A DNA stretch of 64,000 bases, taken from the NCBI GenBank assembly GCA_963721435.1, contig CAVRJC010000007.1, forward strand, positions 11,843 through 75,842. The letters run 5' to 3'. Positions 13,887-52,965 of this stretch are shown here, piece after piece (the stretch's first letter is position 1; every line of letters starts with the position of its first letter). The DNA comes from an uncultured Actinomycetes bacterium. Its GTDB lineage: Bacteria > Actinomycetota > Acidimicrobiia > IMCC26256 > DASPTH01. A program made the translations under genes and the position numbers. The notes under the pieces were generated by a model, which saw only the letters and a list, made by a program, of their open reading frames with translations, was not told where the DNA came from and did no database searches.

Positions 13887-14570
13887 ATGATCGGCCCGAT
13901 GCCGGTCGAGCCGCCTCCGTGTCGCTGGGCGCTGCCCGTTGCGGCAGATGCGGTGTCGGAGGTCGCGGGGATCGGGGCCGACCTCGAGCCCGGGACGCTG
14001 CTGGCCGCGTATCGGGCCGGGCTGTTCCCGATGCGCCTCCATGCGGGTGGTCCGATCGCGTGGTGGTCGCCCGACCCACGCGGCATCATCCCGCTGGACG
14101 CGCTGCACGTTGGTCGGTCGCTCCGCCGCGCGCAACGGACGTTCGAAGTGCGGATCGACACCGCGTTCGAAGCGGTCGTGCGCGGCTGTGCCGATCCCCG
14201 ACGCCCGCACGGATGGATCGACGACGAGTTCGTCGCGGCGTACACCGAGTTGCACCGTCTCGGTTGGGTGCACAGCGTCGAGACGTGGCGCGACGACGAG
14301 CTTGCCGGCGGCCTGTACGGCATCGCGATCGGTGGGCTGTTCGCGGCGGAGTCGAAGTTCCACCGGGAACGGGACGCGTCCAAGGTCGCCGTCGTCGCGC
14401 TCGTCGAGGTGCTGCGCGCCGGCGGCGCCGCGTTGCTCGACGTGCAGTGGAACACGCCGCACCTGTCGTCACTGGGCGCGATCGACGTGCCGCGCGCCGA
14501 GTACCAGCGATTGCTGGCCGCGGCCTTGGCGCGTCCGCTGCCTGCGCTCTTCGCGTCCGTCCCGGAGTAG
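13887..14570 (+). CDS. aat: leucyl/phenylalanyl-tRNA--protein transferase
   Basis: Motifs AAYRAGLFPM, WWSPDPRGIIPLD and WVHSVETWRDDELAGGLYGIAIGGLFAAESKFH are typical of Aat. Confidence 0.85.
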   Translation: MIGPMPVEPPPCRWALPVAADAVSEVAGIGADLEPGTLLAAYRAGLFPMRLHAGGPIAWWSPDPRGIIPLDALHVGRSLRRAQRTFEVRIDTAFEAVVRGCADPRRPHGWIDDEFVAAYTELHRLGWVHSVETWRDDELAGGLYGIAIGGLFAAESKFHRERDASKVAVVALVEVLRAGGAALLDVQWNTPHLSSLGAIDVPRAEYQRLLAAALARPLPALFASVPE

Positions 14571-14580
14571 CGTCGCCGGC

Positions 14581-14934
14581 ATGGATGCAATGGTCGTGTA
14601 CCACAACCCCGTCTGCAGCAAGTCCCGCGGTGCGCTCGAGATCCTCGGCGACAAGGACGTCGACGTCGAGGTCATCGAGTACCTCGTGGTGAAGCCTTCA
14701 CGCGCTGATCTCGAGCGGATCGTCGACGCGATCCCCGACCCGCCGTCGGCGCTGGTGCGCAAGGACAAGCGGTTCGCCGAGCTCGGCCTCGACGCCGCGG
14801 CCTACGAGACCAAGGAGCAGGTTGTCGACCTGCTGCTCGAGCACCCGGAGCTCATGGAGCGCCCGGTCGTGTTCAAGGGTGACCGTGCGCTGATCTGCCG
14901 TCCGAGCGAGAAGGTGCTCGAGCTCCTCGACTGA
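14581..14934 (+). CDS. ArsC/Spx/YffB family thioredoxin-fold protein
   Basis: 117 aa with MVVYHNPVCSKSRGALEIL (N-terminal Cys in the ArsC-family context). The ATG at 14581 was verified in the sequence. Confidence 0.8.
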   Translation: MDAMVVYHNPVCSKSRGALEILGDKDVDVEVIEYLVVKPSRADLERIVDAIPDPPSALVRKDKRFAELGLDAAAYETKEQVVDLLLEHPELMERPVVFKGDRALICRPSEKVLELLD

Positions 14935-14939
14935 GGGAG

Positions 14940-17171
14940 CTACACGCCCACGGGCTCGGGTGTCCGCTCGATCGCCGCCGGTTCCTGCGGTGTCGGCGAT
15001 GCCGAGTCGATGTCGAGCCGCGGGAGCCATCCGAGCCACTTCGGGAACCACCAGTTCGCGTCGCCCAGGATCTCCATGACGGACGGCACGAGCATCATGC
15101 GCACGATGGTGGAGTCGATGAGCACCGCGAACGCGAGCCCGAGCCCGAACATCTTCACCTCGGGCGACTCGTTCAGGACGAACGCGCCGAACACGAAGAT
15201 CATGATCAAGGCGGCCGACGTGATCACGCGCGCGGTGCGCGAGAGCCCACGCACGACGGCTTGTCGCGTGTTGTGCGAGCCGTCGTACTCCTCGCGGACA
15301 CGCGTGAGCAGGAACACCTGGTAGTCCATCGACAGCCCGAACAGCACCGCGAACATCATCATCGGCACGAACGAGACGATGGGGACCGTGCTCTCGAGGC
15401 CGATGAGGTCCTTCGCCCAACCCCACTGGAACACCGCCACGATGACGCCGTACGCGGCCGCCACCGAGAGCAGGTTCATCACTGCCGCGGTGAGCGGCAC
15501 GAGGACCGAGTGGAAGACGAGCATCAACAGCAGGAACGAGAGCAGCACGACCGCGAAGATGAACAGCGGCAACCGTGACGCGATCTGGTCGGAGATGTCG
15601 ATGAACGTCGCCGTCACGCCACCGACGTATGCCTGCACGCCGGTGGCGCCACTGGCCGAGATCGCCTTCGGGATCTCGTCGCGCAGCGTCTGCACGAGGT
15701 TGTTGGTCGCGTCGCTCTCGGGTGCGCTCGTCGGGTACACGCCGAGCAGCGCCACCGTCTTGTCCGTGTTGAAGTTCGCGGGCAGGACCCCTGAGACGCC
15801 CGGCGTCTGCCTGATCGCCGCCGCGATGTCGTCGACGACTGCCTCATCGGCGTCGGGCGGGAGCGAGACGACGACGAGCAGCGGCCCGTTCGCGCCGGGC
15901 CCGAAACCTTGTGCGATCAGGTCGTAGGCCTGGCGCTGGGTCGTGGAGGTGGGCAGGTTGCCGTCGTCGGACTCGCCGAGCCGCATGCTCAGGAACGGCG
16001 ACGCGATCACCAGCATGATGAGCGTCCCGACGATCGCGAACACCCACTTGTGCTCGGCGACTCGCACGGCCCAACGCTCCCAGAACGTGGGGCCCGCGGG
16101 TGCTGCACCCGCGTCGCGGTTCGGATGGTGCATGAAGCTGGGTACTCGCCACTTGTCGATGTTGTGGCCGACGATCCCGATGATCGCGGGCAGGAACGTG
16201 ATCGCCGCCAGCATCATCACCGCGACGACCATCGCCGACATGTAGCCGAGGCGCGCGACGTAGGGGATTCCCGAGACCGCGAGCCCGGAGATCGCGATCA
16301 CCACGGTGCAGCCGGCGAAGATCACCGCGGAGCCGGCGGTGGCAACCGAGTGCCCCACCGCGGCTTCGACGGGCATCCCCGCGGCGAGGTTCTCGCGGTA
16401 GCGCGTCACGATGAACAGCGAGTAGTCGATCCCGACGCCCAGGCCGATCATCGTCGCGAGGGTCGGAGCGAGGGTGCCGATGTCGGTGATCGCGGCGACG
16501 ATGTTGATGAGCGAGATCCCGATCCCGAGGCCGAAGAGCGCGGTCAGGATGGGGAGGCCCATCGCGACGACCGATCCGAACACGAACAGCAGGATCACGA
16601 CCGCCGCAAGCAGCCCGATGAGGTCGGCGTTGCCTTCCGGCGGTTGGTCCGAGAAGTCGACGACCGCGCCGCCGTACGCGAGGCGGACGCCCGCCTGCTC
16701 CGCAGGCGCGGTGGCTGCAGTGATCTGGTCGAACGCGCCGAGCCCGACCTGCTGCGCGAGCTCGTCGTACTGCACGGTCACGAGCGCGATGTCGCCGGAC
16801 TTCGAGACGATCGCCGCGCCGAGGGGACCGTACGGGTCGGTCACCGACGTGACGTGCGGGATCTTCGAGAGGTTGGCGACGCTCTCGCTGATGGCGGCCT
16901 TCACCGCCGGGTCGTTGATGCCGTCGTTGCTCTGGAACACGACGGTGGCGGTGCTCCCGCTCTGTGACGGGAACTGTGACTGCAGCAGGTCGAGCGCTTC
17001 CTGCGACTGGCTGCCATCGATCCGGAAGTTGTCGCTCGTCTGGCCGTCGAGGCCCTTCGAGAGCAGGCCGATCCCGACTGCGGCGATCACCCACACCGCG
17101 ACGAACCACCAGCGATGCCGAACCGCGCTTCGCCCGAGACGGTCGAGCCACCTCGACACAGATCCTCCCAT
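14940..17171 (-). CDS. MMPL family RND-type transporter
   Basis: 743 aa with 12 predicted TM segments in two blocks, each followed by a large loop. Typical MmpL architecture. Confidence 0.9.
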   Translation of the reverse strand: MGGSVSRWLDRLGRSAVRHRWWFVAVWVIAAVGIGLLSKGLDGQTSDNFRIDGSQSQEALDLLQSQFPSQSGSTATVVFQSNDGINDPAVKAAISESVANLSKIPHVTSVTDPYGPLGAAIVSKSGDIALVTVQYDELAQQVGLGAFDQITAATAPAEQAGVRLAYGGAVVDFSDQPPEGNADLIGLLAAVVILLFVFGSVVAMGLPILTALFGLGIGISLINIVAAITDIGTLAPTLATMIGLGVGIDYSLFIVTRYRENLAAGMPVEAAVGHSVATAGSAVIFAGCTVVIAISGLAVSGIPYVARLGYMSAMVVAVMMLAAITFLPAIIGIVGHNIDKWRVPSFMHHPNRDAGAAPAGPTFWERWAVRVAEHKWVFAIVGTLIMLVIASPFLSMRLGESDDGNLPTSTTQRQAYDLIAQGFGPGANGPLLVVVSLPPDADEAVVDDIAAAIRQTPGVSGVLPANFNTDKTVALLGVYPTSAPESDATNNLVQTLRDEIPKAISASGATGVQAYVGGVTATFIDISDQIASRLPLFIFAVVLLSFLLLMLVFHSVLVPLTAAVMNLLSVAAAYGVIVAVFQWGWAKDLIGLESTVPIVSFVPMMMFAVLFGLSMDYQVFLLTRVREEYDGSHNTRQAVVRGLSRTARVITSAALIMIFVFGAFVLNESPEVKMFGLGLAFAVLIDSTIVRMMLVPSVMEILGDANWWFPKWLGWLPRLDIDSASPTPQEPAAIERTPEPVGV

Positions 17172-17258
17172 GGTCGTGCCTGCTGTGCCCCGTTGCCTCT
17201 CGGTTGTCGACTCGGAGCAGCTCCGCCTTGATGTCCGAATCGCCCGATCACGATACGC

Positions 17259-18071
17259 ATGCGCGACGATGAAGCGGCGGGATCACCGGGATCGGGAAGG
17301 GGAGGGGCGGTCGTGAGCGAGGAGTTCGTGCCCCGTCCGCCCGAGGGTCGTGTCTACCGCGCGCGGCGGCGCGTGCACCTGGGCGATGTCGGCAGCAACG
17401 CCAAGCTGCGCCTCGAGGCGCTGGTGCGCTACCTGCAGGATGTCGCCACCGACGACGCCGACGATTCAGGTCTCGACCAGTACAAGGGGGTGTGGGTCGT
17501 CCGCAAGCTCGCGGTCGAAGTGAGATCACTGCCGCGCTATCACGACGAGGTCGAATTGGCGACGTTCTGCAGCGGGGTCGGTCCGTGCTGGGCCGAGCGC
17601 CGCACCACGATGACCGCGGGTGACCGCGTGCTCGCCGAGTCCGCCGCGGTGTGGGTCTACATCGAGAGCGCGGGCGGCAGGCCGCAGCCCCTGGAGCCCG
17701 ACTTTTTCGAGATCTACGGCCGGGCCGCGCAGGACCGGCGAGTGAGCGGCCGCCTGCGCCACCGGCGCCCGGAGCCGGGCGCCGCATCCCGCCCGTGGCC
17801 CCTGCGGGACAGTGACTTCGACGTGCTCGACCACGTGAACAACGCGCGCTACTTCGAAGCGGTGGAAGACGAGCTCGCGTCCCGTCTGCCGGGCCTGGTC
17901 GTGGGGCGAGCCGAGATGGAGTTCCGTGGCGCGGTCGAGCGCGGCGTGGCCGTCGACCTCGTCAGCGAGGCCCGGCAGGGTGAGGAAGCGCCGGCGCAGC
18001 TCGCCGCGTGGCTCCTGGCCGACGGCGAGGTGCGCGCATCGGCGCTGGTCACCGCACGGGCGCGGGACTGA
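17259..18071 (+). CDS. acyl-ACP thioesterase-like hotdog-fold protein
   Basis: Double hotdog pattern with DVGSNAKLRLEALVRYLQDVA and DVLDHVNNARYFE. The start may be the GTG at VSEEF. Confidence 0.65.
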   Translation: MRDDEAAGSPGSGRGGAVVSEEFVPRPPEGRVYRARRRVHLGDVGSNAKLRLEALVRYLQDVATDDADDSGLDQYKGVWVVRKLAVEVRSLPRYHDEVELATFCSGVGPCWAERRTTMTAGDRVLAESAAVWVYIESAGGRPQPLEPDFFEIYGRAAQDRRVSGRLRHRRPEPGAASRPWPLRDSDFDVLDHVNNARYFEAVEDELASRLPGLVVGRAEMEFRGAVERGVAVDLVSEARQGEEAPAQLAAWLLADGEVRASALVTARARD

Positions 18072-19114
18072 TCGTCGCGTACACTCGCCGCGCTCTGGAA
18101 CCCATCGCCCGTCATGTCGCTGCGGGGCGCCGGTGCCTTGTCACCGGTGGGCTCGGCTTCATCGGCTCCAACCTTGCCCTGGCGCTCCAGCGCGAAGGTG
18201 CCGAGGTCACGGTGCTCGATGCGCTCGTGCCGCGCCACGGCGCAAATCCTCACAATCTCGTGGCCGACGGCGCGACCGAAGCCGACCCTGCGATCACGGT
18301 GATCCACGCCGATCTCGGTGAAGTCGGCCGTGACGACGTGCGCGCGGCCGCGGTCGAAGCCGACATCGTGTTCAACCTCGCGGGTCAGGTCAGCCACGTC
18401 GACTCGATGGACGATCCCGTGTTCGACCTGCAGGTGAACACGACGAGCCAGTTCGCGTTCCTCGACCTGGTGCGGCGCGAGAACGCCGATGCGGTCGTGA
18501 TCTACACCTCGACCCGCCAGATCTTCGGCAAGCCGCGGTACCTCCCCGTCGACGAGGAGCATCCGGTCGCGCCGGTCGACGTGAACGGCATCACCAAGTA
18601 CGCGTCCGAGCAGCTCCACATGCTGTACCACGAGGTCTACGGCCTGCGGGCGACCGCAGTGCGACTCACGAACGTCTACGGGCCGCGTCAACGACTCCGC
18701 GACGACTACCAGGGGTTCCTGCCGATCTTCGTGCGCCGCGCCCTCGACGACGAGGCGATCAGCGTGTTCGGTGACGGCGCGCAGCAGCGCGACTGTCTCC
18801 ACGTCGACGACGTCGTCGAATGCCTGATGCTCGCGGCGACAACCCCCGCGGCGCACGGCGAGATCTTCAACGTCGGGAACGACGAGCACCTGTCGCTGCG
18901 CGAGATCGCGGAGGCCGTCGTCGCGGCGGCAGGGTCGGGACGCGTCGAGAGCGTGCCGTGGCCCGCCGATCGCGATGCGATCGACATCGGGTCGTACTTC
19001 GGCGATTCGTCGAAGGCGAAGCGCGTGATGGGCTGGGAGCCGTCGACGCCGTTCGCGGCAGGGATCGCGCGCACGATCGAGTTCTTCCGCGCGCGACGCG
19101 AGTGGTACCGATGA
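18008..19114 (+). CDS. NAD-dependent epimerase/dehydratase family protein; the start codon is unresolved
   Basis: Rossmann motif CLVTGGLGFIGSNLALAL with an extended SDR fold. There is no in-frame ATG/GTG/TTG between the upstream stop (18069-71) and the GxxGxxG motif, so the gene either starts at the GTG at 18008, overlapping the thioesterase gene by 64 nt, or uses a rare start such as the CTG at 18095. Its stop overlaps the next start (ATGA at 19111-19114). Confidence 0.75.
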   Translation: MAPGRRRGARIGAGHRTGAGLIVAYTRRALEPIARHVAAGRRCLVTGGLGFIGSNLALALQREGAEVTVLDALVPRHGANPHNLVADGATEADPAITVIHADLGEVGRDDVRAAAVEADIVFNLAGQVSHVDSMDDPVFDLQVNTTSQFAFLDLVRRENADAVVIYTSTRQIFGKPRYLPVDEEHPVAPVDVNGITKYASEQLHMLYHEVYGLRATAVRLTNVYGPRQRLRDDYQGFLPIFVRRALDDEAISVFGDGAQQRDCLHVDDVVECLMLAATTPAAHGEIFNVGNDEHLSLREIAEAVVAAAGSGRVESVPWPADRDAIDIGSYFGDSSKAKRVMGWEPSTPFAAGIARTIEFFRARREWYR

Positions 19115-20154
19115 CGGAGGTGGTCGACCCGATCCCGTTCCTCGACCTCGCTCGGCGGGCCGCCTCGCTCGAGCCCGACCTCTCCGAGGCAGTCGATCGA
19201 GTGGTGCGGTCGGGCAATTACCTGCTCGGGCCGGAGCTGGAGGCGTTCGAGCTCGAATTCGCGGCGTTCGCGGGCCGCCGGCACGCGGTCGGGGTCGCGT
19301 CGGGCACCGAGGCGCTCCGCCTCGTCCTCGTGTCCCTGCGGCTGGAACCGGGCGACGAGGTGATCGTTCCGGCCATGACCGCGGTGCCGACGGCCGCGGC
19401 GGTGTGCGCGGCAGGTGGAGTACCGGTGTTCGTCGATGTCGACGCGGCGACGGCCGGCATCGACGTGACGGCCGCGGCCGCGGCGGTCACCGACCGCACG
19501 AGGGCCGTCATCCCCGTGCACCTGTACGGCCGACCGGCGGAGCTGCCCGATCTGGGTGTGCCGGTCGTCGAGGACGCCGCCCAGGCGCACGGCGCGCTCG
19601 ACCCGACCGCGCCGTCACTCGCCGCCACGTACAGCTTCTATCCCACGAAGAACCTCGGCGGCATCGGTGACGGCGGCGCGGTGGTCACCGACGACGATGA
19701 TCTCGCGGCGAGGCTCCGCTTGTTGCGCGCCCACGGCCTGACCGACGGCTACGTGCACACCGTGATTGCCACCAACGCGCGCATGTCGGAGATCGAGGCG
19801 GCGGCTCTTCGCGTCGGGTTGCAGGTGCTCGAATCCGGGAACCTCCGCCGCCGCGAGACTGCGCTGCGCTATCGGGAGGCGGCACCCGACCTGCACTGGC
19901 AGGCTCCGCATCCGCGGCACGTGTATCACCTCTGTGTCGCCCGCATGGCCGATCGGGACGACTTCCGTGCGCGTGTGCCGTTCGGCACCGCGCTGCACTA
20001 TCAGCGGGCGCTCACCCAGCAGCCCGCGTACAAGAAATTTGTGCGGGCTCCGTGCCCGGAAGCGGAGCGATGGGCGGCGGAGTGCGTCTCGCTGCCATGC
20101 TTTCCCGAACTCACCGACGAAGAGATCGAGGCAGTGTGCCGAGCGCTCCCGTGA
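19111..20154 (+). CDS. DegT/DnrJ/EryC1/StrS family PLP-dependent sugar aminotransferase
   Basis: SFYPTKNLGGIGDGGAVVT contains the PLP lysine, in a fold-type I sugar aminotransferase pattern. It is translationally coupled upstream (ATGA) and downstream (GTGA). Confidence 0.9.
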   Translation: MTEVVDPIPFLDLARRAASLEPDLSEAVDRVVRSGNYLLGPELEAFELEFAAFAGRRHAVGVASGTEALRLVLVSLRLEPGDEVIVPAMTAVPTAAAVCAAGGVPVFVDVDAATAGIDVTAAAAAVTDRTRAVIPVHLYGRPAELPDLGVPVVEDAAQAHGALDPTAPSLAATYSFYPTKNLGGIGDGGAVVTDDDDLAARLRLLRAHGLTDGYVHTVIATNARMSEIEAAALRVGLQVLESGNLRRRETALRYREAAPDLHWQAPHPRHVYHLCVARMADRDDFRARVPFGTALHYQRALTQQPAYKKFVRAPCPEAERWAAECVSLPCFPELTDEEIEAVCRALP

Positions 20155-20886
20155 ACCCGGCCGTCGAGGCGGTGTCGGCATTCTTCCCGTGTTTCAACGA
20201 CGAGGCCACCATCGGGTCGATGGTGAACCTCGTCGTCACCACGATGGAGACGCTCGGCGTCGACGGCTGAGGTCATCGTGATCAACGACGGCTCCACCGA
20301 CGGCTCGGCCAAGGTGCTCGACGACCTGGTGCTGACCCAGCCACTGCTGCGCATCATCACGCACGAGCACAACTCGGGGTACGGCGCGGTGCTGCTGTCG
20401 GGATTCGCGAACGCCGGTCGCCAATGGGTCTTCTACACCGATGGTGACGCGCAGTACGACCCCACTGAGCTCGAGCTGCTCGTGCAGCACGCGAGCGACG
20501 ACGTCGACGTCGTGCAGGGGTACAAGCTGCGCCGCGCCGACGGCGTGCTGCGGAGTGTGGTGGGCCGCGTGTACCACCGGTTCGTGGCGGTGTTCTTCGG
20601 GTTGAAGATCCGCGACACCGACTGCGACTTCCGGCTGATCCGGCGCGCCATGCTCGACAAGATCGAGCTCGAGCACACGACCGGTGCGATCACGGTGGAG
20701 CTCGTCCGCAAGCTGCAGGACGCGGGCGCGGTGTTCACCGAGGTCGGGGTGCACCACTACCGCCGGGTGTACGGAAGCTCGGAGTTCTTCACCATCCCCG
20801 CCGTCGCGCGCACGCTCTGGGATCTCGCCGGGCTCTGGATCGGGCTGGTGGTGCTGCGCCGCGGCCGCTCGCACGGCGCCCGCTGA
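20151..20886 (+). pseudogene. GT2 polyprenol-phosphate glycosyltransferase (DPM1/ArnC/GtrB-like), split by a +1 frameshift near 20264-20268
   Basis: The N-terminal part (VSAFFPCFNDEATIGSMVNLV...TLGVDG, then stop) and the remainder (EVIVINDGSTDGS...YTDGDAQYDP...) are in adjacent frames. Removing one G from GACGGCTGAGGTC restores the typical GT2 junction LGVDAEVIVINDGS. This is either an authentic pseudogene or a sequencing indel. Confidence 0.7.
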
Positions 20887-20887
20887 C

Positions 20888-21610
20888 TCAGTCCTTCGTC
20901 GCGAGCACCAGCGCGGAGGTGCCGATGGGGAGATCGCGCGTCGCGAGAACCTTGCGCTCGGCTCGTGCCATGGGAGCGAACACCGAGTCGAGGGTGCGCC
21001 GCTCGACGTCGGACTCGGTCGGCGGCGCGGGCCGCACCCGGTCGAGCGCACCGAGCGCAGCGGCGGGCGGCGCGAGGAACGAGTAGGCGTAGGTGCAGCG
21101 GCGGGGCGTGAGCCCGGCCGCTCGCGCGAGGTCGGCGAGCTCGGCGCGGCGGTAGCGGCGCCGGGAGTGCACCGTCGAGTCGTGCGCGCGGCGGAACGCC
21201 TCGAACGCGGGCTCGACGAGCACCACGGCGCCACCACGACGCAGGACGCGCGCGAGCTCGCGCAGCGCGCGCGCGTCGTCGGGCACCGTGTAGAGCACGG
21301 TGATCGCGACGATCTGATCGAACGTCGCGTCGGCGAACGGCAGGGCCTCGAGGTCGGCACGTGCCGGCAGGGTGTCGGGCCGGTTGTCGCGCACGAACTG
21401 CAGCGCGTCGGGGGAGATGTCCACGCCGATCACGGTCCCGTGCGCTGCGAGCCACGCGCCGTTGCCGCCGGGCCCGCACCCCGCGTCCAGGGTGCGCTGC
21501 CCGCGCCCGAGCCACGGTGCCAGCAGCTCGCGCACGAGCGCGCGGGTGTTGCGGTACCACCAGTGGTCGTCTTCGACCGCGGCGATGCGCGCGTACTCCT
21601 CAGTCTCCAC
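20888..21610 (-). CDS. class I SAM-dependent methyltransferase
   Basis: SAM-binding motif I (TLDAGCGPGGNGAWLA) and VDISPDAL. Convergent with the GT2 gene. Confidence 0.85.
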   Translation of the reverse strand: METEEYARIAAVEDDHWWYRNTRALVRELLAPWLGRGQRTLDAGCGPGGNGAWLAAHGTVIGVDISPDALQFVRDNRPDTLPARADLEALPFADATFDQIVAITVLYTVPDDARALRELARVLRRGGAVVLVEPAFEAFRRAHDSTVHSRRRYRRAELADLARAAGLTPRRCTYAYSFLAPPAAALGALDRVRPAPPTESDVERRTLDSVFAPMARAERKVLATRDLPIGTSALVLATKD

Positions 21611-21715
21611 ATTCCCGCTCTCGGCCTGCGGCCGGGCCGCACGACGCCCCGCCTGCGCAACGGCTCGCGCTGGGCCAGCGTACCTGCGCCGCGGGTGCTC
21701 GCCTCGGGTTGAGAG

Positions 21716-23932
21716 TTATCGGTCGGCGACGCGGAGGGTCTCGATGACGAGGTCCGACGACGACCACGCCTGCACGCCCACCCGCTGACCCGCGGGTGCG
21801 TTGCGACCGCGCTCGACCGAGCCCTGCTCGAGGTCGTCGATGGTCATCACGACGGTGTCGTTCACCGATGCGACGAGGCGCTGGCCCACGATGTCGAGGC
21901 GCACGGTGAGGTTGCCGTACATCGTGCTCGGGTCGTCGGCGGCGACGTGTGCGATCGGGTTCCAGAGCTCGCGGTCGGCCTGCCACTGGCGCACGAGGTA
22001 CCCGCCGCCTTCGTACACCGGGTCGACGTCGAACGAGTACGCCGACATGCGGCCCTCGTCGTCGACGTCGGCGCGGAACAGCACACCGAAGCCAGGCCCG
22101 GCGCGGAACTCGAGATCGACTTCCACGAGGTAGCGATCGGACACGGTGAGGTTGGCGAGCGCCCACCGCTCGTCGGCCCGTCGCATGACCAGCGCACCCT
22201 GGCCGCGTACTTCGACCAGCGGCAGCGCGTTGCCGAGCTCCCAGTCGTCGTCGGCCCTGATCCACGCCTCGGGTTCCGGGTCGCCACTGCGGTCGAGCCG
22301 GTTGGCGGCATCGGTGACGGGCTCGGCGGTGTCCGAAGTCTCGTCAGTCTCGTCAGTCTCGTCAGTCTCGTCAGTCTCGTCAGTCTCTGCGGGCGCGGGC
22401 TCGATCGCCGCTTCCTCGGGCCGCCAGGAGATCGGCGAGAGGGCGTCACCCTCGTCCGGTGCGTCGACCTGGTCGGGACTCTTCAGGGGCTCAGTCGGCT
22501 CCCACGTCGGCGGCTCGTCGACCGCGACGAGCTTGTCGAGCAGGTCGGTGGCGCCATGGGCGTCGACATCGTCCGCCACGTCGACGTCGGCAATCTCGTC
22601 GTCGATCGTCTCGGTCTCGTCGACCGTTGTCTCGAACCTGCCGCGGGTGCGCCGCTCCGGGCGGGGTGCCGCCGGTGCGTCGGGGTCGCCCCAATCGACG
22701 AGGAACCCGGTGCTCGTGGCCTCGGGGTCGGGCTCGTGCGCCCACGGTGCGGGCGCGGGCTCGGCGAGCGGTGCGGCCTGCAGCGGCGGCAGATCGCGGA
22801 GGTCCTCGTAGCTCGTGAGCGCGATGACCTCGACGGCCGCCTCGTCGGCATGGCCGTCGACCCCGGGCTGGAGGTCGAACGCCTCGGCCGGGCTCCATGC
22901 GTCGGGCACCTCGGTGGTGCCTGCGTCACCCGGCCACTCCGGCGCGCCCGACGTCGTGTCCGGCTCGTTCCAGACACCCGACGTCGCGGTCTCCCAGTCG
23001 GGCGTCTCCCACGCGGGCCGCGCGTCGGGATCCCAGTCGGTGGTCCACGCCGGCGGCGTGAAGGTCTCGCCGCGGAGGGCGACGTCGATCGGCGGCGCAT
23101 CGGCCGGCGACCACGAACGGTCGACGGTCTCCGATGCGGCTTCGACGACGGTGGGAGCATCGAAGTCGGTGTGCCCGGGCGCCTGCACGTCGGCGACGGA
23201 TGCCGCGCCCGGCAGCACGAACGGCTCGTCGTCGACGAGCTCGAAGGTCCCGGACGGTGGTGCGATCGCCGAGTCGATCATGCCGGACTCGCCTATGGCG
23301 GCGAACGGCACGGCTTCCGCCATCCCCGATTCGACCGGCGCGTCGGCGGTGAGGAACGCGGGTGGCGCGAGCATGTCGGGGTAGTCGTGCGGGTCATCGG
23401 TCAGCGCTACCGGCTCGGGCAGCCGCGCGAGCTCTTCGAACACGTCGACGGGCGCCGCGGTCGTCGGCTCGGTGGAGGCGGATGCGGGCGCGAACGGCTC
23501 CGGCGCGAAGAACGGCTCCGGCGGTTCGGGCAGCGCCGTTGGAGCGGGCGCGGCCTGCGGACCGGAGTAGACCGGCGTGGGCTGGTCGGCCGCTTCGAGC
23601 GCGAGGACTGCACGGCCACCCGCACCGTTCTGCTGCCCGCGGCGCAGGAACGCGATCGTGTCGCCGATGCTCTCGGGGCCGGCTTCGAGCTCGAGCGCGC
23701 CCTGGTCGGGCACCAGCTCGCTGACGTCGACGCCGCAGGATCCGGCGAGCACCCAGAGGTCGCTCTCGGGGATCGGCACCTTGCCCCGCTCGTACGCGAC
23801 GAGCTCGCGGCGGCTCAGCCCGGCGCCGCGCGCGACCTCGGAGAGCGAGAGGCCCTTCCGTCGCCGCACTGCGCGCAATTGCTTGCCGAGTTGCTTCGGA
23901 TTGGTCGTCGGGATGGTCGCCGCCTCGGCCAT
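21716..23932 (-). CDS. HTH_XRE DNA-binding protein with a long acidic Pro-rich disordered linker and a C-terminal DUF1080/LamG-like jelly-roll domain
   Basis: The start is taken at the ATG at 23932 (MAEAATIPTTNPKQLGKQLRAVRRRKGLSLSEVARGAGLSRRELVAYERGKVPIPESDLWVLAGSCGVDVSELV, an XRE-type HTH); sequence upstream of it in the 1207-aa ORF is low-complexity. About 500 aa of D/E/P/A/T-rich low-complexity sequence follow, including an ETDETDETDETDETDET repeat. The C-terminal roughly 180 aa (LTVSDRYLVEVDLEFRAGPGFGVLFRA...GQRVGVQAWSSSDLVIETLRV) match the DUF1080 / 3-keto-disaccharide-hydrolase-like beta-sandwich pattern. I see no TM helix. Confidence 0.7.
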   Translation of the reverse strand: MAEAATIPTTNPKQLGKQLRAVRRRKGLSLSEVARGAGLSRRELVAYERGKVPIPESDLWVLAGSCGVDVSELVPDQGALELEAGPESIGDTIAFLRRGQQNGAGGRAVLALEAADQPTPVYSGPQAAPAPTALPEPPEPFFAPEPFAPASASTEPTTAAPVDVFEELARLPEPVALTDDPHDYPDMLAPPAFLTADAPVESGMAEAVPFAAIGESGMIDSAIAPPSGTFELVDDEPFVLPGAASVADVQAPGHTDFDAPTVVEAASETVDRSWSPADAPPIDVALRGETFTPPAWTTDWDPDARPAWETPDWETATSGVWNEPDTTSGAPEWPGDAGTTEVPDAWSPAEAFDLQPGVDGHADEAAVEVIALTSYEDLRDLPPLQAAPLAEPAPAPWAHEPDPEATSTGFLVDWGDPDAPAAPRPERRTRGRFETTVDETETIDDEIADVDVADDVDAHGATDLLDKLVAVDEPPTWEPTEPLKSPDQVDAPDEGDALSPISWRPEEAAIEPAPAETDETDETDETDETDETSDTAEPVTDAANRLDRSGDPEPEAWIRADDDWELGNALPLVEVRGQGALVMRRADERWALANLTVSDRYLVEVDLEFRAGPGFGVLFRADVDDEGRMSAYSFDVDPVYEGGGYLVRQWQADRELWNPIAHVAADDPSTMYGNLTVRLDIVGQRLVASVNDTVVMTIDDLEQGSVERGRNAPAGQRVGVQAWSSSDLVIETLRVADR
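22338..22387. repeat. 9-bp microsatellite GTCTCGTCA, 5 full copies plus a partial copy, inside the coding sequence; encodes (ETD)n on the minus strand
   Basis: Read directly: the unit GTCTCGTCA tiles 22338-22382 and ends in a truncated copy. The unit length is a multiple of 3, so copy-number changes stay in frame. Confidence 0.9.
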
Positions 23933-24010
23933 GATCTTTGGTATCGGCTGCTCACCCGTCTGCCTGAAGGGTGAGCTGCACGGGTCTGGTCGGGGTAGGT
24001 TCGCGGCTTC

Positions 24011-24571
24011 ATGGCCATCTACGCCCTCGGCGACTCCGCACCGCAGATCCATCCCGCGGCATACGTGCACCCCGACGCCACCGTCATCGGCAACGTCACG
24101 ATCGGCCCGCAGTCGACGGTGTGGCCCCAGACCGTCCTCCGGGGTGACTACGGCCGGATCGAGATCGGTGCCCGCACGTCGATCCAGGACGGCAGCGTGG
24201 TACACACCACCGCGTTGCTCCCGACGATCATCGGCGACGACTGCGTGATCGGGCACCTGGTGCACCTCGAGTGCTGCACGGTGCAGGACCGCGCGCTCGT
24301 CGGCACGGGCGCGATCGTGCTGCACTCGGCGGTGATCGAGTCGGGTGCGTGGGTCGGCGCCGGGGCGGTGGTCCCGAACCGCATGATCGTGCCCACCGGG
24401 GCGATGGCCCTCGGTGTGCCGGCGAAACTGCGCGAAGGCGTGGTCGATCCCGACGAGATCCAGCGGATGGCCGACCTCTATATCGGCAACGCCACGCGCT
24501 ACCAGCGCCGAGCTGCGCCGCATCGACTGACGCGCGGCGCGCGCGTCAGTCGATGCGCGGTCGATGCGTGA
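24011..24571 (+). CDS. gamma-class carbonic anhydrase family protein (hexapeptide-repeat left-handed beta-helix, YrdA/PaaY-like)
   Basis: Repeating [LIV]GxxxxIxxxxVIG hexapeptides, with PQIHPAAYVHPDATVIGNVTIG and the metal-ligand His context. Confidence 0.9.
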   Translation: MAIYALGDSAPQIHPAAYVHPDATVIGNVTIGPQSTVWPQTVLRGDYGRIEIGARTSIQDGSVVHTTALLPTIIGDDCVIGHLVHLECCTVQDRALVGTGAIVLHSAVIESGAWVGAGAVVPNRMIVPTGAMALGVPAKLREGVVDPDEIQRMADLYIGNATRYQRRAAPHRLTRGARVSRCAVDA

Positions 24572-24606
24572 CCGTCGATGCCTGACCGTTGACGCCTGAC
24601 CCTTGA

Positions 24607-25905
24607 CTAACCCTTGACGTACGCGAACTTCTCGGCGACCTTGCCGTCGCGCACGCGGATGACATCGACGCCGCGGATGTGTGCGGTCGTGCCGTCGTCG
24701 TTCTCCCACGAGTAGACCCACTGCACGACACACCGGTCGCCCGTCACGATCACGTCTTCGGCATCGAAGTGCGCGGTCGGTGACGCGGCGAAGAATTCCT
24801 GCCACGCACCGCGCACCGCGGCTGCCCCCTCGAATCGTCGGCCCTCGGGTGGCGACGTGTTCTCGAACACACAGTCGTCGGTCATCGCGGCCATCACGCC
24901 GTCGACATCGTGGCGGTTGAACGCGTCGTTGAACCGGTCGACCGCTTCGGCCGTCGCCGACTCGCTGGATGCCATGGTCACTCCTGTCTCGTCGCCGTCC
25001 GGTCGGTACAGGTCGGGTTCCACGAACATCAGCCGCGCCTCGGGCACCGAGGTTCGCACGCGCGCTTCCACCGTGTCGATCGCGCGCGCGACCTCGGGCA
25101 CGGTCGACACGCTGAATTCGAGCTTGGTCGCGACGAGCACGTCGTCGGGGCCGAGGTGCATCGTGCGCAGGTGTATCACGCGCGACACCTCGTCGCCGTC
25201 GTGGATCGCGGTCCGGATCCGCGCCTCCAGTGTCGGGGACGCCGACTCGCCGATCAGCAGGCTCTTCATCTCGATCGCGAGCACGATGGCGATCACGCCG
25301 AGGAGCAGGCCGATCGCGAGGCTCCCGACCGCGTCCCAACGGTCATTGCCGGTGACCTCGGCGAGGGTGATGCCGACGAGGGCCATGAACAGGCCGGCGA
25401 GCGCGCCCGTGTCTTCGAGCAGCACGACGGGGAGCTCGGGGTTCTTGGTCGTGTGGATGAACTGCCACCACGAGCGGCCGTCACGCGACGGGTTCGCTTC
25501 GCGACGCGCGGTGCGGAGTGACAGTCCTTCGAGCACGATCGCGACGCCGAGCACCACGTACGCGACGATCGGTGATTCGATGTGCTCCGGAGTGATGAGC
25601 TTCTGGATGCCCTCGTACAGCGCGAACATCGAGCCGAGCGTGAACAGCACCAGCGCGACGACGAACGCCCAGAAGTAGCGCTCGGCGCTGTACCCGAAGG
25701 GATGTTGCACGCTCGGCGCGCGCTTGCTCCGCCGGCCGCCGAGGAAGAGCAATCCCTGGTTGCCGGTGTCGGCCACCGAGTGGATCGCCTCCGCGAGCAT
25801 CGACGCCGAGCCCGTGATCGCGAACGCAAAGAACTTCGATGCCGCGATCCCGAGGTTGGCGAGGAACGCGGCGACGATGGCCCGGCGAGTCGCCTGGTCA
25901 GTCAT
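24607..25905 (-). CDS. cation diffusion facilitator (CDF) transporter with an in-frame C-terminal SnoaL/NTF2-like domain
   Basis: Starts MTDQATRRAIVAAFLANLGIAASKFFAFAITGSASMLAEAIHSVADTGNQ, with CDF TM helices carrying the HS.AD and DxxxH metal-site context, then the cytoplasmic CTD (...EARLMFVEPD). With no stop in between, a 120-aa SnoaL-like domain follows (AVDRFNDAFNRHDVDGVMAAMTDDCVFE...GVDVIRVRDGKVAEKFAYVKG). Confidence 0.8.
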   Translation of the reverse strand: MTDQATRRAIVAAFLANLGIAASKFFAFAITGSASMLAEAIHSVADTGNQGLLFLGGRRSKRAPSVQHPFGYSAERYFWAFVVALVLFTLGSMFALYEGIQKLITPEHIESPIVAYVVLGVAIVLEGLSLRTARREANPSRDGRSWWQFIHTTKNPELPVVLLEDTGALAGLFMALVGITLAEVTGNDRWDAVGSLAIGLLLGVIAIVLAIEMKSLLIGESASPTLEARIRTAIHDGDEVSRVIHLRTMHLGPDDVLVATKLEFSVSTVPEVARAIDTVEARVRTSVPEARLMFVEPDLYRPDGDETGVTMASSESATAEAVDRFNDAFNRHDVDGVMAAMTDDCVFENTSPPEGRRFEGAAAVRGAWQEFFAASPTAHFDAEDVIVTGDRCVVQWVYSWENDDGTTAHIRGVDVIRVRDGKVAEKFAYVKG

Positions 25906-26608
25906 CCCGTACGTCCCACACGGTGCTCGTCGCCAACCGCACGGTGTCGCCGTCGGCACTCGAGAGGCGCAGCACCGAGGTGCCGCGCTCGTAGCCGTCG
26001 AACCGCGCCGTGACCGTGTCGGCGGTGCCGTCGACGGCAGTGTGCGCGACGGTGAGCACGCGGCCTTTCCCGAGCCGGAGGCGTTCGTCCCATCCGTAGC
26101 GGAGGCACCCGTCGGGCCCACGTCGCGGTGGCTTGCCGACGTGCACGCGCTGCTCGCGGTACGACGCCGCCAGGACCGCGGCGTGCTCGGGGCCCCAGAA
26201 CTCGGCGGTGGCGTCGAGCAGCACGCGTGCGAACGTGCGGCCGTGATGCGGGAGCCCGGAGTCGATCCCGAGTGCCCAGTGGGTCATCTCGTGGAGGACG
26301 ACGCCCTTCGTGCGGTACCGCCGCGGCAGCGTGATCGTCGGGCCGGTGTCTTCCACTCGGAAGAACGCCTGGCGCGCGCCGTTCCCCGGACGCAAGCGGG
26401 GAACCGACGCGAGATCGTGGTCGGGGAACCGCTCGTGCCACCAGAGCGTGCCGACCACACGGTCGATGAAGCGTGCACAGGCCTCGAGGCCGGGGAGGGG
26501 GCTCGTGGGCAGCGGGGTCTCCGCGAGGTACACCCGGCTGCGTTGCGCGTCCCGTGGTCGCCGCCGCGGCGGCGTCGCAGGCTGGCGGCCGGCCGCAGAG
26601 GGATCCAT
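25898..26608 (-). CDS. putative HExxH zinc metallohydrolase (TIGR04338-like) with a C-terminal extension
   Basis: HEMTHW zinc-binding motif within VVLHEMTHWALGIDSGLPHHGRTFARVLLD. It overlaps the downstream CDF gene start by 8 nt, so the two are probably co-transcribed. Confidence 0.55.
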   Translation of the reverse strand: MDPSAAGRQPATPPRRRPRDAQRSRVYLAETPLPTSPLPGLEACARFIDRVVGTLWWHERFPDHDLASVPRLRPGNGARQAFFRVEDTGPTITLPRRYRTKGVVLHEMTHWALGIDSGLPHHGRTFARVLLDATAEFWGPEHAAVLAASYREQRVHVGKPPRRGPDGCLRYGWDERLRLGKGRVLTVAHTAVDGTADTVTARFDGYERGTSVLRLSSADGDTVRLATSTVWDVRDD

Positions 26609-27582: not shown

Positions 27583-28454
27583 TGGCTGCGGTCACGACCC
27601 CCCCGGCGACCCGATCGGCTGCCGGACACCCGAGCACACCCGCGGTGGTGCGCGCCGAGCTCTCCAAGGCCGGTCGTCGCCTCCGTACCTACGTCGCGTA
27701 CGGCATCGTCGCCGCGATCCCGATCATCATCACGTTCGTCCTCAAGGCGAACCCGCCCGACAACGTGCAGGACGGCCCTCGCCTCGCGTTCCTCGGTTCC
27801 CTTTCGGGGTTGCTGATTCCCGCGTTCGCGTTGCGGATCACGAGCGAGTTCCTCCTCGTCGTGGTGGTGTCACTGTTCGCCGGCGATGCGATCGCGGGGG
27901 AGGCGTCGTGGGGGAACCTGCGGTACCTGCTCATGCGCCCGATCGGGCGCGGCCGCCTGTTCGCGGCCAAGTTCATCGTGTCGGTCGTCTACGGGTGGAT
28001 CGCGGTCGTGATCGTGGTGGTGGTCGGCACGATCGTCGGTGGCATCGTGTTCGGGTTCCACGGCATCAATCTCGGATTCGGCCCGTTCGGGATCGTCGAG
28101 TCGGCGTCGAGCATCGTCGGCCATCTCGCGATCGCGACGGTCTACGTGTCGTGGTTCCTCACGACGATCATCGCGTTCTCGTTCATGCTCGGGTGCATGA
28201 CCGACTCGCCGGGCGGTGCGATCCTCGGCGGGATCGGGCTGTGGATCACCTTCGCCATCCTCGACGCCATCGACTCGCTCGGGCAGATCCGATACTTCTT
28301 CCCGACGCACTGGTCGGGCGCGTGGGTCGACATGTTCACGAGAAACAGCGTGAGCGACGACATGATCCGGGGCGCCCTGCTCACGCTGGGATACGTGATC
28401 GTGTTCGTGGGCATCGCGGCGTGGTGGTTCCGCCGCAAGGACATCCTCAGCTGA
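27582..28454 (+). CDS. ABC-2 family transporter permease
   Basis: 290 aa with 6 TM segments, translationally coupled to the ATPase gene. Confidence 0.8.
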   Translation: MAAVTTPPATRSAAGHPSTPAVVRAELSKAGRRLRTYVAYGIVAAIPIIITFVLKANPPDNVQDGPRLAFLGSLSGLLIPAFALRITSEFLLVVVVSLFAGDAIAGEASWGNLRYLLMRPIGRGRLFAAKFIVSVVYGWIAVVIVVVVGTIVGGIVFGFHGINLGFGPFGIVESASSIVGHLAIATVYVSWFLTTIIAFSFMLGCMTDSPGGAILGGIGLWITFAILDAIDSLGQIRYFFPTHWSGAWVDMFTRNSVSDDMIRGALLTLGYVIVFVGIAAWWFRRKDILS

Positions 28455-29391
28455 GCTCAGGGAGCTCCTGGTCCTCCGCGAGGCTGCCCGAGTAGGCGTC
28501 GCCCAGGTCTTCGACGCGCGCGAGCACTGCGTCGGGCTCGAACTGCAGCGTCGTGATGTCATCGGTGTCGACGGCCGCTGCCACTTCGTCCCACGTCAGT
28601 GGCGTCGACACCTGCGGGCGCAGGGTCGCGCGCAACGAGTACGCGCACACGGTCGTCTTGTGGCGGTCGTTCTGGCTCCAGTCGACGAACACGCGCCCGG
28701 CGCGCTGGTCGCGCGCCATGTTGACGGTGACCCGCTTCGGGTCGCGCGACTCGAGAATGCGACCGAGTGCGAGCGCGAAGGCCTTGGTCTGGTCGGCATC
28801 GACCGACGGGCGCAGCCCCACCGACACGTGCAGTCCCTTCGAGCCCGACGTCTTCACGACTGCGTGCAGCCCGAGCTGCCCGAGCACCTCGCGGAGGTCG
28901 AGGGCGACGCGCGCGCAATCACGCACGTCGGCGGGCGCGCCGGGGTCGAGGTCGAACACCATCGCGGTCGGCCGGAGCGGGTCGTCGGCCCGCGCTTGCG
29001 GCGTGTGCAGCTCGAGCGCGGCCAGGTTGGCGACCCAGACCAGCCCGGGCAGGTCGTCGACCGCGCACGACGCGATGTCGGAACCGGCGTCGAGCGGCAC
29101 GGTGTGCAGCCAGTCGGGCCGATGGCCCGGGCAGCGCTTCTCGAAGAACCGCTCACCCTCGACGCCGTCGGGCAGGCGCACCATCGTGAGCGGGCGGCCG
29201 TGCAGGTGGGGGAGCAGCACGGGCGCGATCCGGGCGTAGTAGTCGACGACCTGGCCTTTGGTGAAGCCCACGGCCGGGTACAACACCTTCTCCAGGTTCG
29301 AGAGTCGGAGCCGGCGGCCGCCGACCTCTACCCTCGTGGCCGTGTTGCGGCCCGCGGGCTCGGGATCTGGGATCTTGGACCCGGCTGCCAC
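28447..29391 (-). CDS. NHEJ polymerase/primase domain protein (LigD-type polymerase domain, standalone)
   Basis: AEP primase-polymerase motifs LSNLEKVLYPAVGFTKGQVVDYY, DLDPGAPADVRDCARV, VKTSGSKGLHVSVGL and FVDWSQNDRHKTTVCAYSLRA. The proposed GTG start at 29391 avoids overlap with the divergent ku gene. The ORF-track start at 29481 is a TTG. Confidence 0.8.
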   Translation of the reverse strand: MAAGSKIPDPEPAGRNTATRVEVGGRRLRLSNLEKVLYPAVGFTKGQVVDYYARIAPVLLPHLHGRPLTMVRLPDGVEGERFFEKRCPGHRPDWLHTVPLDAGSDIASCAVDDLPGLVWVANLAALELHTPQARADDPLRPTAMVFDLDPGAPADVRDCARVALDLREVLGQLGLHAVVKTSGSKGLHVSVGLRPSVDADQTKAFALALGRILESRDPKRVTVNMARDQRAGRVFVDWSQNDRHKTTVCAYSLRATLRPQVSTPLTWDEVAAAVDTDDITTLQFEPDAVLARVEDLGDAYSGSLAEDQELPELS

Positions 29392-29468
29392 GACCTGCGA
29401 AGGTAGTAGGGCACAGGGCCGGGAGAACCAGAAGAAGCAAGAGCCGAAGCAGGAGAGGAGGCTCGGGC

Positions 29469-40047: not shown

Positions 40048-40131
40048 CCGCGCATCGCGACGTCGGGACGCGTGCTCCAAGGACGCCAGTATGGGCGAAG
40101 CCGTGCCGCGCCGCTCGTACACTGCCGCCGC

Positions 40132-50120: not shown

Positions 50121-50264
50121 TCAGTCGGAGGACGGGAGCGGCGCCGCGGCAGGCATCTCCATCACCTGGCCGTGGCACGTGAGCTCCCCGTCGCCCGCCT
50201 TGGTGACGAGCACCGTGGCCTCGCACACCGTGCACGTGTACCGCTTGCCCATCTGGTTCGCCAT
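50121..50264 (-). CDS. small CxxC zinc-ribbon-like protein (47 aa), not in the ORF track
   Basis: MANQMGKRYTCTVCEATVLVTKAGDGELTCHGQVMEMPAAAPLPSSD. A strong AAGGAGGG Shine-Dalgarno lies 8 nt upstream. It is a paralog of the adjacent mini-ORF. Confidence 0.45.
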   Translation of the reverse strand: MANQMGKRYTCTVCEATVLVTKAGDGELTCHGQVMEMPAAAPLPSSD

Positions 50265-50270
50265 CGGGGC

Positions 50271-50393: not shown

Positions 50394-50455
50394 GGTCGTC
50401 AGGATACCGAAACGGTTGCGACGCCGGTCGAGTCGGGCGCTGGCGTGCGCGTAGC

Positions 50456-52957: not shown

Positions 52958-52965
52958 GGGTGAGA

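Follow-up and report, generated by a model that had tools for sequence, protein, structure and literature searches.

The genes described here lie on a 64,000-nucleotide stretch of DNA (contig CAVRJC010000007.1; the whole stretch is called the window) from an uncultured Actinomycetes bacterium of the class Acidimicrobiia, and they may encode a pathway that makes an amino sugar and transfers it outside the cytoplasm. An initial annotation of positions 17259 to 21610 had described five genes, encoding a thioesterase, an epimerase/dehydratase, a sugar aminotransferase, a family 2 glycosyltransferase (GT2) and a methyltransferase, and had likened them to the Arn pathway, in which a 4-amino-4-deoxy sugar is made on undecaprenyl phosphate for modification of the cell envelope. 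The window has about 70% G+C and spurious long open reading frames (ORFs) are abundant; real genes were picked by third-position G+C and profile searches, and domain scans covered about 55 ORFs. All five genes were recovered in that interval with strong Pfam matches, and a sixth gene, some distance upstream, encodes a membrane protein predicted to have the GT-C fold of membrane glycosyltransferases. The features on which the argument depends are the following, with the evidence for each in brackets.

5185-6276, plus strand: predicted GT-C-fold membrane glycosyltransferase, 363 aa, about 8 transmembrane helices, PMT_2/PIG-V-like (Pfam, AlphaFold/Foldseek)
14940-17171, minus strand: MMPL/RND lipid transporter, facing away from the thioesterase-SDR operon (divergent), given for context only (Pfam MMPL, 307 bits)
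17259-18071, plus strand: acyl-ACP thioesterase, at the head of the co-directional run (Pfam PF01643 and PF20791, N and C domains)
18104-19114, plus strand: atypical extended short-chain dehydrogenase/reductase (SDR), the 'epimerase/dehydratase' (PF01370, 158 bits)
19111-20154, plus strand: sugar aminotransferase of the DegT/DnrJ/EryC1 family, pyridoxal-phosphate (PLP) type, 347 aa (PF01041, 290 bits)
20151-20270, plus strand: N-terminal fragment of GT2, GTG start, 39 codons and then TGA (sequence)
20268, plus strand: extra single T that breaks the GT2 frame (comparison with relatives)
20269-20886, plus strand: C-terminal part of GT2, containing the DxD region and the interface helices, with a hydrophobic tail that is short (Pfam PF00535, Glycos_transf_2)
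20888-21610, minus strand: class I S-adenosylmethionine (SAM) methyltransferase (Pfam PF08241, Methyltransf_11, 79 bits)

The two overlaps that had been taken as signs of translational coupling are present in the sequence: the stop codon of the SDR gene overlaps the start of the DegT gene in ATGA (19111-19114), and the DegT stop overlaps the GTG start of GT2 in GTGA (20151-20154). The methyltransferase gene is convergent with GT2, their stops being 1 nt apart. A promoter and terminator scan of positions 16900-22000 returned no sites.

A scan of species-representative genomes with the aminotransferase returned 80 loci (related loci and proteins are cited below by L and P numbers), the closest of which, with 51-68% identity, come from Acidimicrobiia, Ilumatobacteraceae and metagenome-assembled genomes (MAGs) labelled 'Actinomycetes'. 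One of the loci, L011, belongs to an Ilumatobacter MAG. Where the DegT protein is at least 46% identical (20 loci), an SDR and a GT2 gene are each found within 6 kb in 18 loci and a methyltransferase gene in 15, and the exceptions are mostly contigs that end early. Around the more distant DegT proteins of the other 60 loci, the SDR is present in 8 and the GT2 and the methyltransferase in 3 each. Because this arrangement recurs in about 20 independent loci it is far beyond chance, and the set formed by the SDR, DegT, GT2 and methyltransferase genes is a real module; the co-conservation in relatives on which the initial annotation had staked its proposal was in this way found. Its suggestion of a mycolate actinobacterium did not hold, the relatives being Acidimicrobiia and not mycolate bacteria. 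The order GT2-SDR-DegT was also found in Candidatus Solincola (L019), Chloroflexi (L023, L028) and Acidobacteriota (L059, L071). The methyltransferases of the module share conserved family motifs, HWW and a C-terminal SD...ER...LPxGxS, and their solved relatives are generic (RebM, MitM).

The SDR is a member of the extended SDR family that acts on nucleotide sugars, with 158 bits for PF01370 against a gathering threshold of 20.9 and the Rossmann motif GGLGFIGS. Its active-site motifs are S-T-R-Q and Asn-Gly-Ile-Thr-Lys, the usual pair in nucleotide-sugar SDRs being [ST][DS]E and Tyr-x3-Lys, and alignment with the PDB entries 7ys8 and 1r6d puts the Asn at the position of their catalytic Tyr. 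All 26 locus homologues carry the Asn motif, as do 119 of the 120 database proteins that match the SDR best, and the Asn is kept in about 100 of the 150 best representatives of 50%-identity clusters; the nearest out-group of these N-type SDRs retains Tyr together with an [ST]-Arg motif. Given that the motif is kept across homologues, it is no defect peculiar to the window copy. The T-R-Q...Asn signature fits none of the nucleotide-sugar SDR classes tabulated in a review (PMC8987622), in which the only precedents for active Tyr-less SDRs are PglF and WbpM (T-D-K...Met-x3-Lys), which still oxidise C4.

The N-type SDR is repeatedly joined to the aminotransferase. P0278 (707 aa) holds a complete N-type SDR and a complete DegT domain in one protein, and the same pairing is found in the partial ORFs P0342, P0357, P0243 and P0287; in addition, an SDR-DegT gene pair without GT2 occurs in six loci (L014, L017, L018, L051, L052, L073). 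In P0300 (600 aa) a Tyr-type SDR of the sister clade is fused to a Methyltransf_11 domain. The presence of Asn at the textbook Tyr site, together with the repeated aminotransferase fusion, points to non-canonical keto-sugar formation and makes the N-type SDR of enzymological interest. We also noted P0262 (648 aa), in which a 320-aa N-terminal domain of no assigned family precedes an N-type SDR.

The aminotransferase is a member of the DegT/DnrJ/EryC1/StrS family by its PF01041 score and its PLP-lysine motif; it carries EDAAQAHG and SFYPTKNLG, the latter aligned with the PLP-lysine motif of DesV and 7b0d. Its best solved relatives are 7b0d (252 bits), DesV (230), WbpE (206) and QdtB (202), followed by ArnB with 142-166 bits. 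By this ranking of bit scores against PDB chains, which is not a tree, the enzyme appears closer to the C-3 aminotransferases DesV, WbpE and QdtB than to ArnB, and the amination leans to C-3; the ArnB-type assignment and the 4-amino product of the initial annotation are not established, given that the C-3 enzymes outscore ArnB. When the extra T is removed, the GT2 is a protein of 244 aa that aligns without gaps to residues 7-224 of ArnC. Its named NCBIfam matches are, in order, ArnC (NF007986), PgfS, the processive synthase PgaC/IcaA, AglJ and dolichyl-phosphate hexose transferase, with PpgS lower, and all are below their cut-offs (34.8 bits against 370 for the PpgS/Rv3631-type model NF058614). 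Among PDB entries ArnC is the best solved relative with 75.7 bits, followed by GtrB with 42.8. ArnC has 322-327 aa and two C-terminal transmembrane helices; the shorter GT2 ends about 20 residues past the ArnC-aligned part and lacks this hairpin. The description of the protein as an ArnC-type GT2 was accordingly kept in part: it resembles polyprenyl-phosphate glycosyltransferases and ArnC is its best solved match, yet it scores below the ArnC cut-off and has no hairpin. From this similarity the GT2 is probably related to the polyprenyl-phosphate glycosyltransferases, and as such it would be the first element expected of a three-component glycosylation system.

These comparisons bear on the possibility that the module is a strict analogue of Arn, in which an ArnA-like decarboxylase/4-oxidase and an ArnB-like 4-aminotransferase would produce a UDP-4-amino-4-deoxy pentose or hexose that an ArnC orthologue would load onto undecaprenyl phosphate. 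The top NCBIfam models are indeed ArnB for the aminotransferase (NF008658, 181 bits) and ArnC for the GT2 (60-77 bits), the latter is also its best solved relative, the gene order and overlaps are like those of arnBC, and L023 has a small EamA protein similar to ArnE/F. However, these scores are far under the equivalog cut-offs (181 against 631 for ArnB; 77, or 77.4 for the repaired protein, against 529 for ArnC), and the SDR, which had been considered similar to the C-terminal domain of ArnA, reaches only 24.8 bits with the ArnA model NF005998 (cut-off 777) and 40.1 with NF008872 (cut-off 294). Besides, the SDR has T-R-Q and Asn-x3-Lys instead of the T-S-E...Tyr-x3-Lys signature of the ArnA C-terminal domain and the UXS decarboxylases, and ArnB is outscored by the C-3 aminotransferases by 40-110 bits. 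As the initial annotation had stated, no formyltransferase or deformylase is evident: no Formyl_trans or polysaccharide-deacetylase match was obtained among the ORFs scanned in the window and none was seen in the flanks of related loci, a methyltransferase being conserved instead, and no UDP-glucose dehydrogenase match was found among the window ORFs scanned. We therefore regard a strict Arn analogue as very improbable.

The frameshift that had been reported in the GT2 gene was confirmed by comparison with the four relatives in which the site can be read (L002, L055, L081, L084): they have GGC-GAG where the window has GGC-T-GAG, so that a single T is inserted at 20268. L084 was the only relative obtained from a metagenome scan of the site, with or without the T. 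Look-ups by exact sequence with the DegT protein, the C-terminal GT2 fragment, the methyltransferase and the annotated SDR (P0006) gave no second record of the site. The N- and C-terminal parts of GT2 are contiguous and in frame in L002 and L055. A programmed +1 frameshift was discarded, given that GGC-TGA is not slippery and that the four relatives lack the T.

The absence of a conventional start for the epimerase/dehydratase was likewise corroborated, as the stretch from the thioesterase stop (18069-18071) to the GxxGxxG motif of the SDR contains no ATG, GTG or TTG. Among the 120 closest database homologues, 65 start 11 residues ahead of this motif (MARHV...); this ancestral position, which is Met in relatives, is ATC in the window (18104-18106) and ATG in L081, whose SDR is 93% identical and whose module has 88.5% nucleotide identity. 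Other relatives (P0011) start at a second position, and there too the window reads ATC (18071). The sole canonical in-frame start is a GTG at 18008, which overlaps the thioesterase gene by 64 nt and whose position is conserved in L002; the SDR of this relative also lacks a nearby canonical start, though its GT2 is intact. Because of the missing start codon, the public annotation of an identical SDR (P0006, 300 aa; 18212-19114) is an artefact that begins at an internal GTG and drops the GxxGxxG NAD-binding motif. With a 1-nt insertion in GT2 and the start codon of the SDR lost, the window copy is either damaged or mis-assembled.

Similar breaks are present in genes of the window unrelated to the module. 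The AMP-binding (acyl-CoA synthetase-like) gene at 51313-53020 (minus strand) is split near 51915 by an extra G (CTC[G]GGATCG), whose deletion restores a 537-aa protein with complete AMP-binding and AMP-binding_C domains. A Liv-type branched-chain amino-acid ABC transporter at 36431-40299 (minus strand), a fused permease and ATPase ORF, switches frame near 37575, inside the first ATPase and between '...VFPALATRRRDA' and 'GDLSGGEQQML', and two complete ABC_tran domains are obtained when the frames are joined. A third extra-base frameshift is probable near 41375 (TTC[C]GGTGAG), in an ORF of about 276 aa at approximately 40850-41640 (minus strand); this case is based on the codon-position G+C frame map and reading-frame continuity, and the repaired ORF has no Pfam match. 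From the frame map of the whole window and the domain scans, unrelated genes carry a frameshift about once every 16-20 kb, those two that could be placed exactly look like one-base insertions, and similar defects were observed in the relatives L081-L083 (ENA 'contig_NNNN' assemblies). This is the pattern of consensus indel errors, and a genuine mutation is no more likely than an assembly error. A further suspected frameshift, around 50122, was discarded: it is explained by a pair of small zinc-ribbon ORFs that precede an AMP-binding gene, itself intact.

It had been proposed that the pathway may be inactive in this strain. Because at least two unrelated genes of the window are also frameshifted, the GT2 frameshift, which may be an assembly error, is not acceptable as evidence of inactivation; the module is real and conserved, and its apparent inactivation is unreliable as biology. 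A decaying remnant, in which GT2 would be a pseudogene, translation of the SDR would be poor or absent and the pathway would be off, is conceivable but doubtful. It would agree with the extra T that four relatives lack, with the ATC at the start position used by 65 homologues, and with the P0006 annotation that begins downstream of the NAD-binding motif. It is opposed by the two frameshifted genes that repair restores and the probable third one, by L002, where the SDR is likewise without a nearby canonical start while GT2 is intact and the position of the GTG at 18008 is conserved, and by the remaining catalytic motifs, which are all intact. Such a remnant is in any case compatible with the interpretation of the module at the level of the gene family.

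With regard to an outward-facing transferase, the statement that no ArnT-like GT-C is present is true for positions 17259-21610 only; the protein encoded at 5185-6276, in the same window, is predicted to have a GT-C fold. It matches Pfam PMT_2 (36 bits, cut-off 26.1) and also Mannosyl_trans2, and has no NCBIfam match. Its AlphaFold model (pLDDT 81.8, pTM 0.84) was compared with the PDB using Foldseek; the ranking is led by GT-C chains (AglB/STT3, AftB, ALG9, ArnT, Pmt4, PimE, Emb), with a few chains of GPI-transamidase subunits among them, and unrelated transporters appear only afterwards. The TM-scores (TMq) are 0.54 for ArnT (5f15), 0.52 for PimE and 0.45-0.49 for the oligosaccharyltransferases AglB and STT3; the model of 363 aa matches ArnT, PimE, AftB and STT3 equally well, and ArnT has about 550 aa with a periplasmic C-terminal domain. 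The motif WDG (W67, D68, G69) in the first loop is invariant in 32 homologues. On the basis of this model we propose that the protein is a putative outward-facing transferase that uses a lipid-linked sugar.

In related loci, GT-C genes stand next to the module. Genes for homologues of the 5185-6276 protein (30-40% identity) immediately precede the SDR gene in L003, L007, L008 and L015, and in L059 a PMT_2 protein is encoded between the SDR and DegT genes. In L082 the GT-C gene is about 10 kb from the module, and the genes of L083 are arranged in the same way as far as the MMPL gene. In the Candidatus Solincola MAG (L019, 3286-6867, plus strand) an ORF of 1193 aa fuses a YfhO/PMT_2-type GT-C to the GT2 of the module, which by sequence is a Rosetta-stone link between a presumed donor synthase and an outward-facing transferase. 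More generally, a polytopic membrane protein lies beside the module in most loci with enough flanking sequence, and most of those with a Pfam match are GT-C. Other flanking membrane proteins are a Wzy_C/O-antigen-ligase-like protein in L028, MurJ at 4.5 kb in L071, and a small EamA/SMR-type protein, of the family of ArnE/F, right after DegT in L023. Three-component extracytoplasmic glycosylation is an established mechanism (PMC8035078, PMC11127046), and the linkage of a GT-C to the GT2 that characterizes it was found as adjacency in five loci (L003, L007, L008, L015, L059), as a fusion in L019 and as presence in the same window here. Because GT-C genes flank the module or are fused to it in relatives, the logic of an amino sugar passed to a lipid carrier and then to a GT-C is supported; this outline of the Arn comparison stood, but the enzymes are not orthologues of ArnA, ArnB and ArnC.

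In L005 (9783-10115) and L007 (9784-10194), both on the plus strand, small membrane proteins are encoded right after GT2; they share a P-N-S-G...G-D-R-G-G motif and a C-terminal transmembrane helix, and none equivalent was found in the window.

The structural matches of the GT-C also raise the question of the acceptor, which could be a protein, modified by O- or N-linkage, instead of a cell-wall polymer. The PMT_2 family includes proteins similar to protein O-mannosyltransferases (PMTs), the top structural matches are oligosaccharyltransferases (AglB, STT3), and the GT2 also matches AglJ. The pairing of a GT2 with a methyltransferase recalls archaeal AglJ/AglP. The TM-scores of the oligosaccharyltransferases are nevertheless low, and come from the shared GT-C core, those of ArnT and PimE being equal or better; moreover, the GT-C of 363 aa is without the large extracytoplasmic domain typical of PMTs and oligosaccharyltransferases. 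This variant of the pathway proposed below is rather unlikely.

The thioesterase had been included in the module by the initial annotation, but it is linked to it only in the closest clade, where a homologue lies beside the SDR gene (L002, L081, L082). The MMPL gene adjoins the thioesterase in L081 and L082, has the same relative position in L083, and was not found beside the module in distant loci. The thioesterase is probably a lineage-specific neighbour and not a core part, and the same applies to the MMPL gene. These two genes would have a role if the product were an amino-sugar glycolipid or another non-polyprenyl glycoconjugate, for which the GT2 would use a cytoplasmic acceptor, the thioesterase would provide the acyl chain, MMPL would carry out the export and no GT-C would be required. 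That the clade of the window always has an acyl-ACP thioesterase and a divergent MMPL gene ahead of the module is consistent with this idea, as are a GT2 devoid of transmembrane helices save for its short hydrophobic tail and the six loci that have the SDR-DegT pair without GT2. But neither gene accompanies the module in the remaining loci, approximately 20, where its neighbours are GT-C or other polytopic membrane proteins, including the GT-C-GT2 fusion, and the named matches of the GT2 are mostly polyprenyl-phosphate glycosyltransferases, for which reasons a glycolipid product seems improbable.

We consider it somewhat probable that the GT-C gene (5.2-6.3 kb) and the four genes at 18.1-21.6 kb for the SDR, the DegT enzyme, the GT2 and the methyltransferase constitute an extracytoplasmic glycosylation pathway of the three-component type with its own supply of amino sugar. 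The genes are linked by their domain identities, overlaps, co-conservation and fusions and by the GT-C fold, and from these we infer every chemical step. The atypical SDR would convert a nucleotide sugar to a keto sugar, the DegT enzyme would transaminate it to an amino sugar, and the methyltransferase would modify the sugar or its amine. By analogy with formylation in the Arn pathway, we speculate that methylation may render an unfavourable transamination irreversible. The short ArnC-like GT2 would then transfer the sugar to polyprenyl phosphate at the cytoplasmic face, some transporter would flip the lipid-linked sugar, and the GT-C enzyme would transfer the sugar to a polymer of the envelope or to a protein that is secreted.

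Several observations weigh against this pathway. Neither the catalytic Tyr nor the acid/base pair found in every characterised class of nucleotide-sugar SDR listed in the review cited above (PMC8987622) is present in the SDR, and the GT2 is without the ArnC-type transmembrane hairpin. A distance of 11 kb separates the GT-C gene of the window from the module, and the conservation of this distance in the clade may reflect only shared ancestry. Two families of membrane proteins that flank the module in other loci, c8 (L004, L011, L013, L020) and c11 (L005, L006, L010), have no meaningful Pfam match and were not shown to be GT-C, a profile-profile comparison with a GT-C alignment being not significant (probability below 1%). 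No candidate flippase of the GtrA, SMR or MATE type was seen among the window ORFs scanned, and no described equivalent of the module, nor of the Tyr-to-Asn SDRs, was found in the literature searched.

As a broader and more tentative proposal, which we hold to be possible rather than probable, the pathway would be widespread and would operate in Acidimicrobiia, Chloroflexi and Acidobacteriota to form a methylated cationic amino sugar on polyprenyl phosphate, by means of a new Asn-for-Tyr class of SDR, a DesV-like aminotransferase and a methylation 'pull', and interchangeable GT-Cs would transfer this sugar onto polymers or proteins. The Acidimicrobiia, most of them uncultured, abound in soils, fresh waters and the sea, and their envelopes are nearly unstudied. 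A conserved cassette that makes a lipid-linked amino sugar would be a first handle on a surface modification in these bacteria, and the modification could alter charge and the susceptibility to phages and antimicrobial peptides, as Ara4N and GalN do elsewhere.

Downstream of the module an XRE-type regulator is followed by a hexapeptide protein. The regulator corresponds to a helix-turn-helix at residues 483-541 of a 1207-aa open frame at 21716-25339 (minus strand), which is mostly a high-G+C artefact, has the look of coding sequence only from 21716 to about 24000, and overlaps a real gene on the opposite strand (24011-24571). This gene encodes the hexapeptide protein, which is similar to gamma-carbonic anhydrase/PaaY (146 bits) and not to NeuD/PglD, and its candidacy as a sugar N-acetyltransferase was ruled out; in L002 and L055 it adjoins the methyltransferase gene. 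Other observations in the window concern a small coding segment at 14568-14934 (plus strand), after the gene for Leu/Phe-tRNA protein transferase, which matches the position of an ArsC-family gene in L082 and L083 and is hidden in the spurious ORF 13939-14934; a cation-efflux (CDF) transporter at 24607-26121 (minus strand) with an apparent C-terminal SnoaL-like domain, an unusual pairing; a divergent pair of side-by-side genes at 28447-30395 that encode a LigD primase-polymerase domain and Ku (non-homologous end-joining repair); and the zinc-ribbon-like ORFs mentioned above, which are in tandem, have about 40-50 aa each with CxxC...C, and lie at approximately 50130-50400 (minus strand) upstream of the AMP-binding gene 48647-50095.

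To sum up, the initial annotation was right in outline, and was wrong in its specific Arn assignments, in the mycolate suggestion, in the weight given to the frameshift and in missing the GT-C. As judged by sequence, the module appears to work like the Arn and Gtr/CsbB-YfhO systems, yet its proteins fall outside the ArnA, ArnB, ArnC and PpgS families.

The proposed pathway shares with Arn the succession of an SDR, a DegT aminotransferase, a GT2 that would load polyprenyl phosphate and a GT-C, with coupled genes, as well as ArnC as the best solved relative of the GT2 and an EamA/SMR-type protein after DegT in L023. It differs in that the SDR, by motif and score, would be no UDP-glucuronic acid decarboxylase, the aminotransferase is nearer to the C-3 enzymes, the GT2 lacks the C-terminal hairpin, a SAM methyltransferase is conserved in place of the formyltransferase and deformylase, the GT-C is a PMT_2/PIG-V-like protein of 363 aa whereas ArnT has 550 aa, and the hosts are mostly monoderm Acidimicrobiia. 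PglF and WbpM are similar in that a Tyr-less nucleotide-sugar SDR feeds a DegT aminotransferase, for instance PglE (PMC8987622); in contrast, they have Met where the window SDR has Asn, and an Asp-Lys acid/base pair after Thr where it has Arg-Gln, and the window SDR resembles overall the Epimerase and GDP_Man_Dehyd families, not Polysacc_synt_2. A likeness to the desosamine and Quip3N systems is given by the aminotransferase, whose best solved relatives include DesV, QdtB and WbpE, and the pairing of this enzyme with a methyltransferase is reminiscent of DesV/DesVI. Unlike those systems, the module has neither a 4,6-dehydratase with the D-E motif nor a 3,4-ketoisomerase, its methyltransferase gave no match to DesVI or TylM1 at an E value below 1e-4, and its product would go to a polyprenyl-phosphate GT2 instead of a macrolide or O-antigen glycosyltransferase.

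The mycobacterial GalN system (PpgS/Rv3631, Rv3632, Rv3779) is also actinobacterial, and in it a short GT2 supplies a GT-C with a polyprenyl-phosphate amino sugar. PpgS, however, uses UDP-GalNAc and needs neither an SDR nor an aminotransferase, and the GT2 of the module reaches only a small part of the PpgS cut-off, as given above. Arabinogalactan is not known to occur in Acidimicrobiia. Lastly, the three-component systems (GtrA/GtrB/Gtr*, CsbB/GtcA/YfhO, PgfS; PMC8035078, PMC11127046) differ in that they take a common UDP-sugar directly, while the module adds its own SDR, aminotransferase and methyltransferase, and in their GtrA/GtcA-type flippase, a type not found in the window. They have in common with the module a polyprenyl-phosphate glycosyltransferase of the GT2 family together with a GT-C, which in L019 is of the YfhO type and is fused to the GT2, and the swapping of different types of GT-C beside a constant cassette for donor synthesis.

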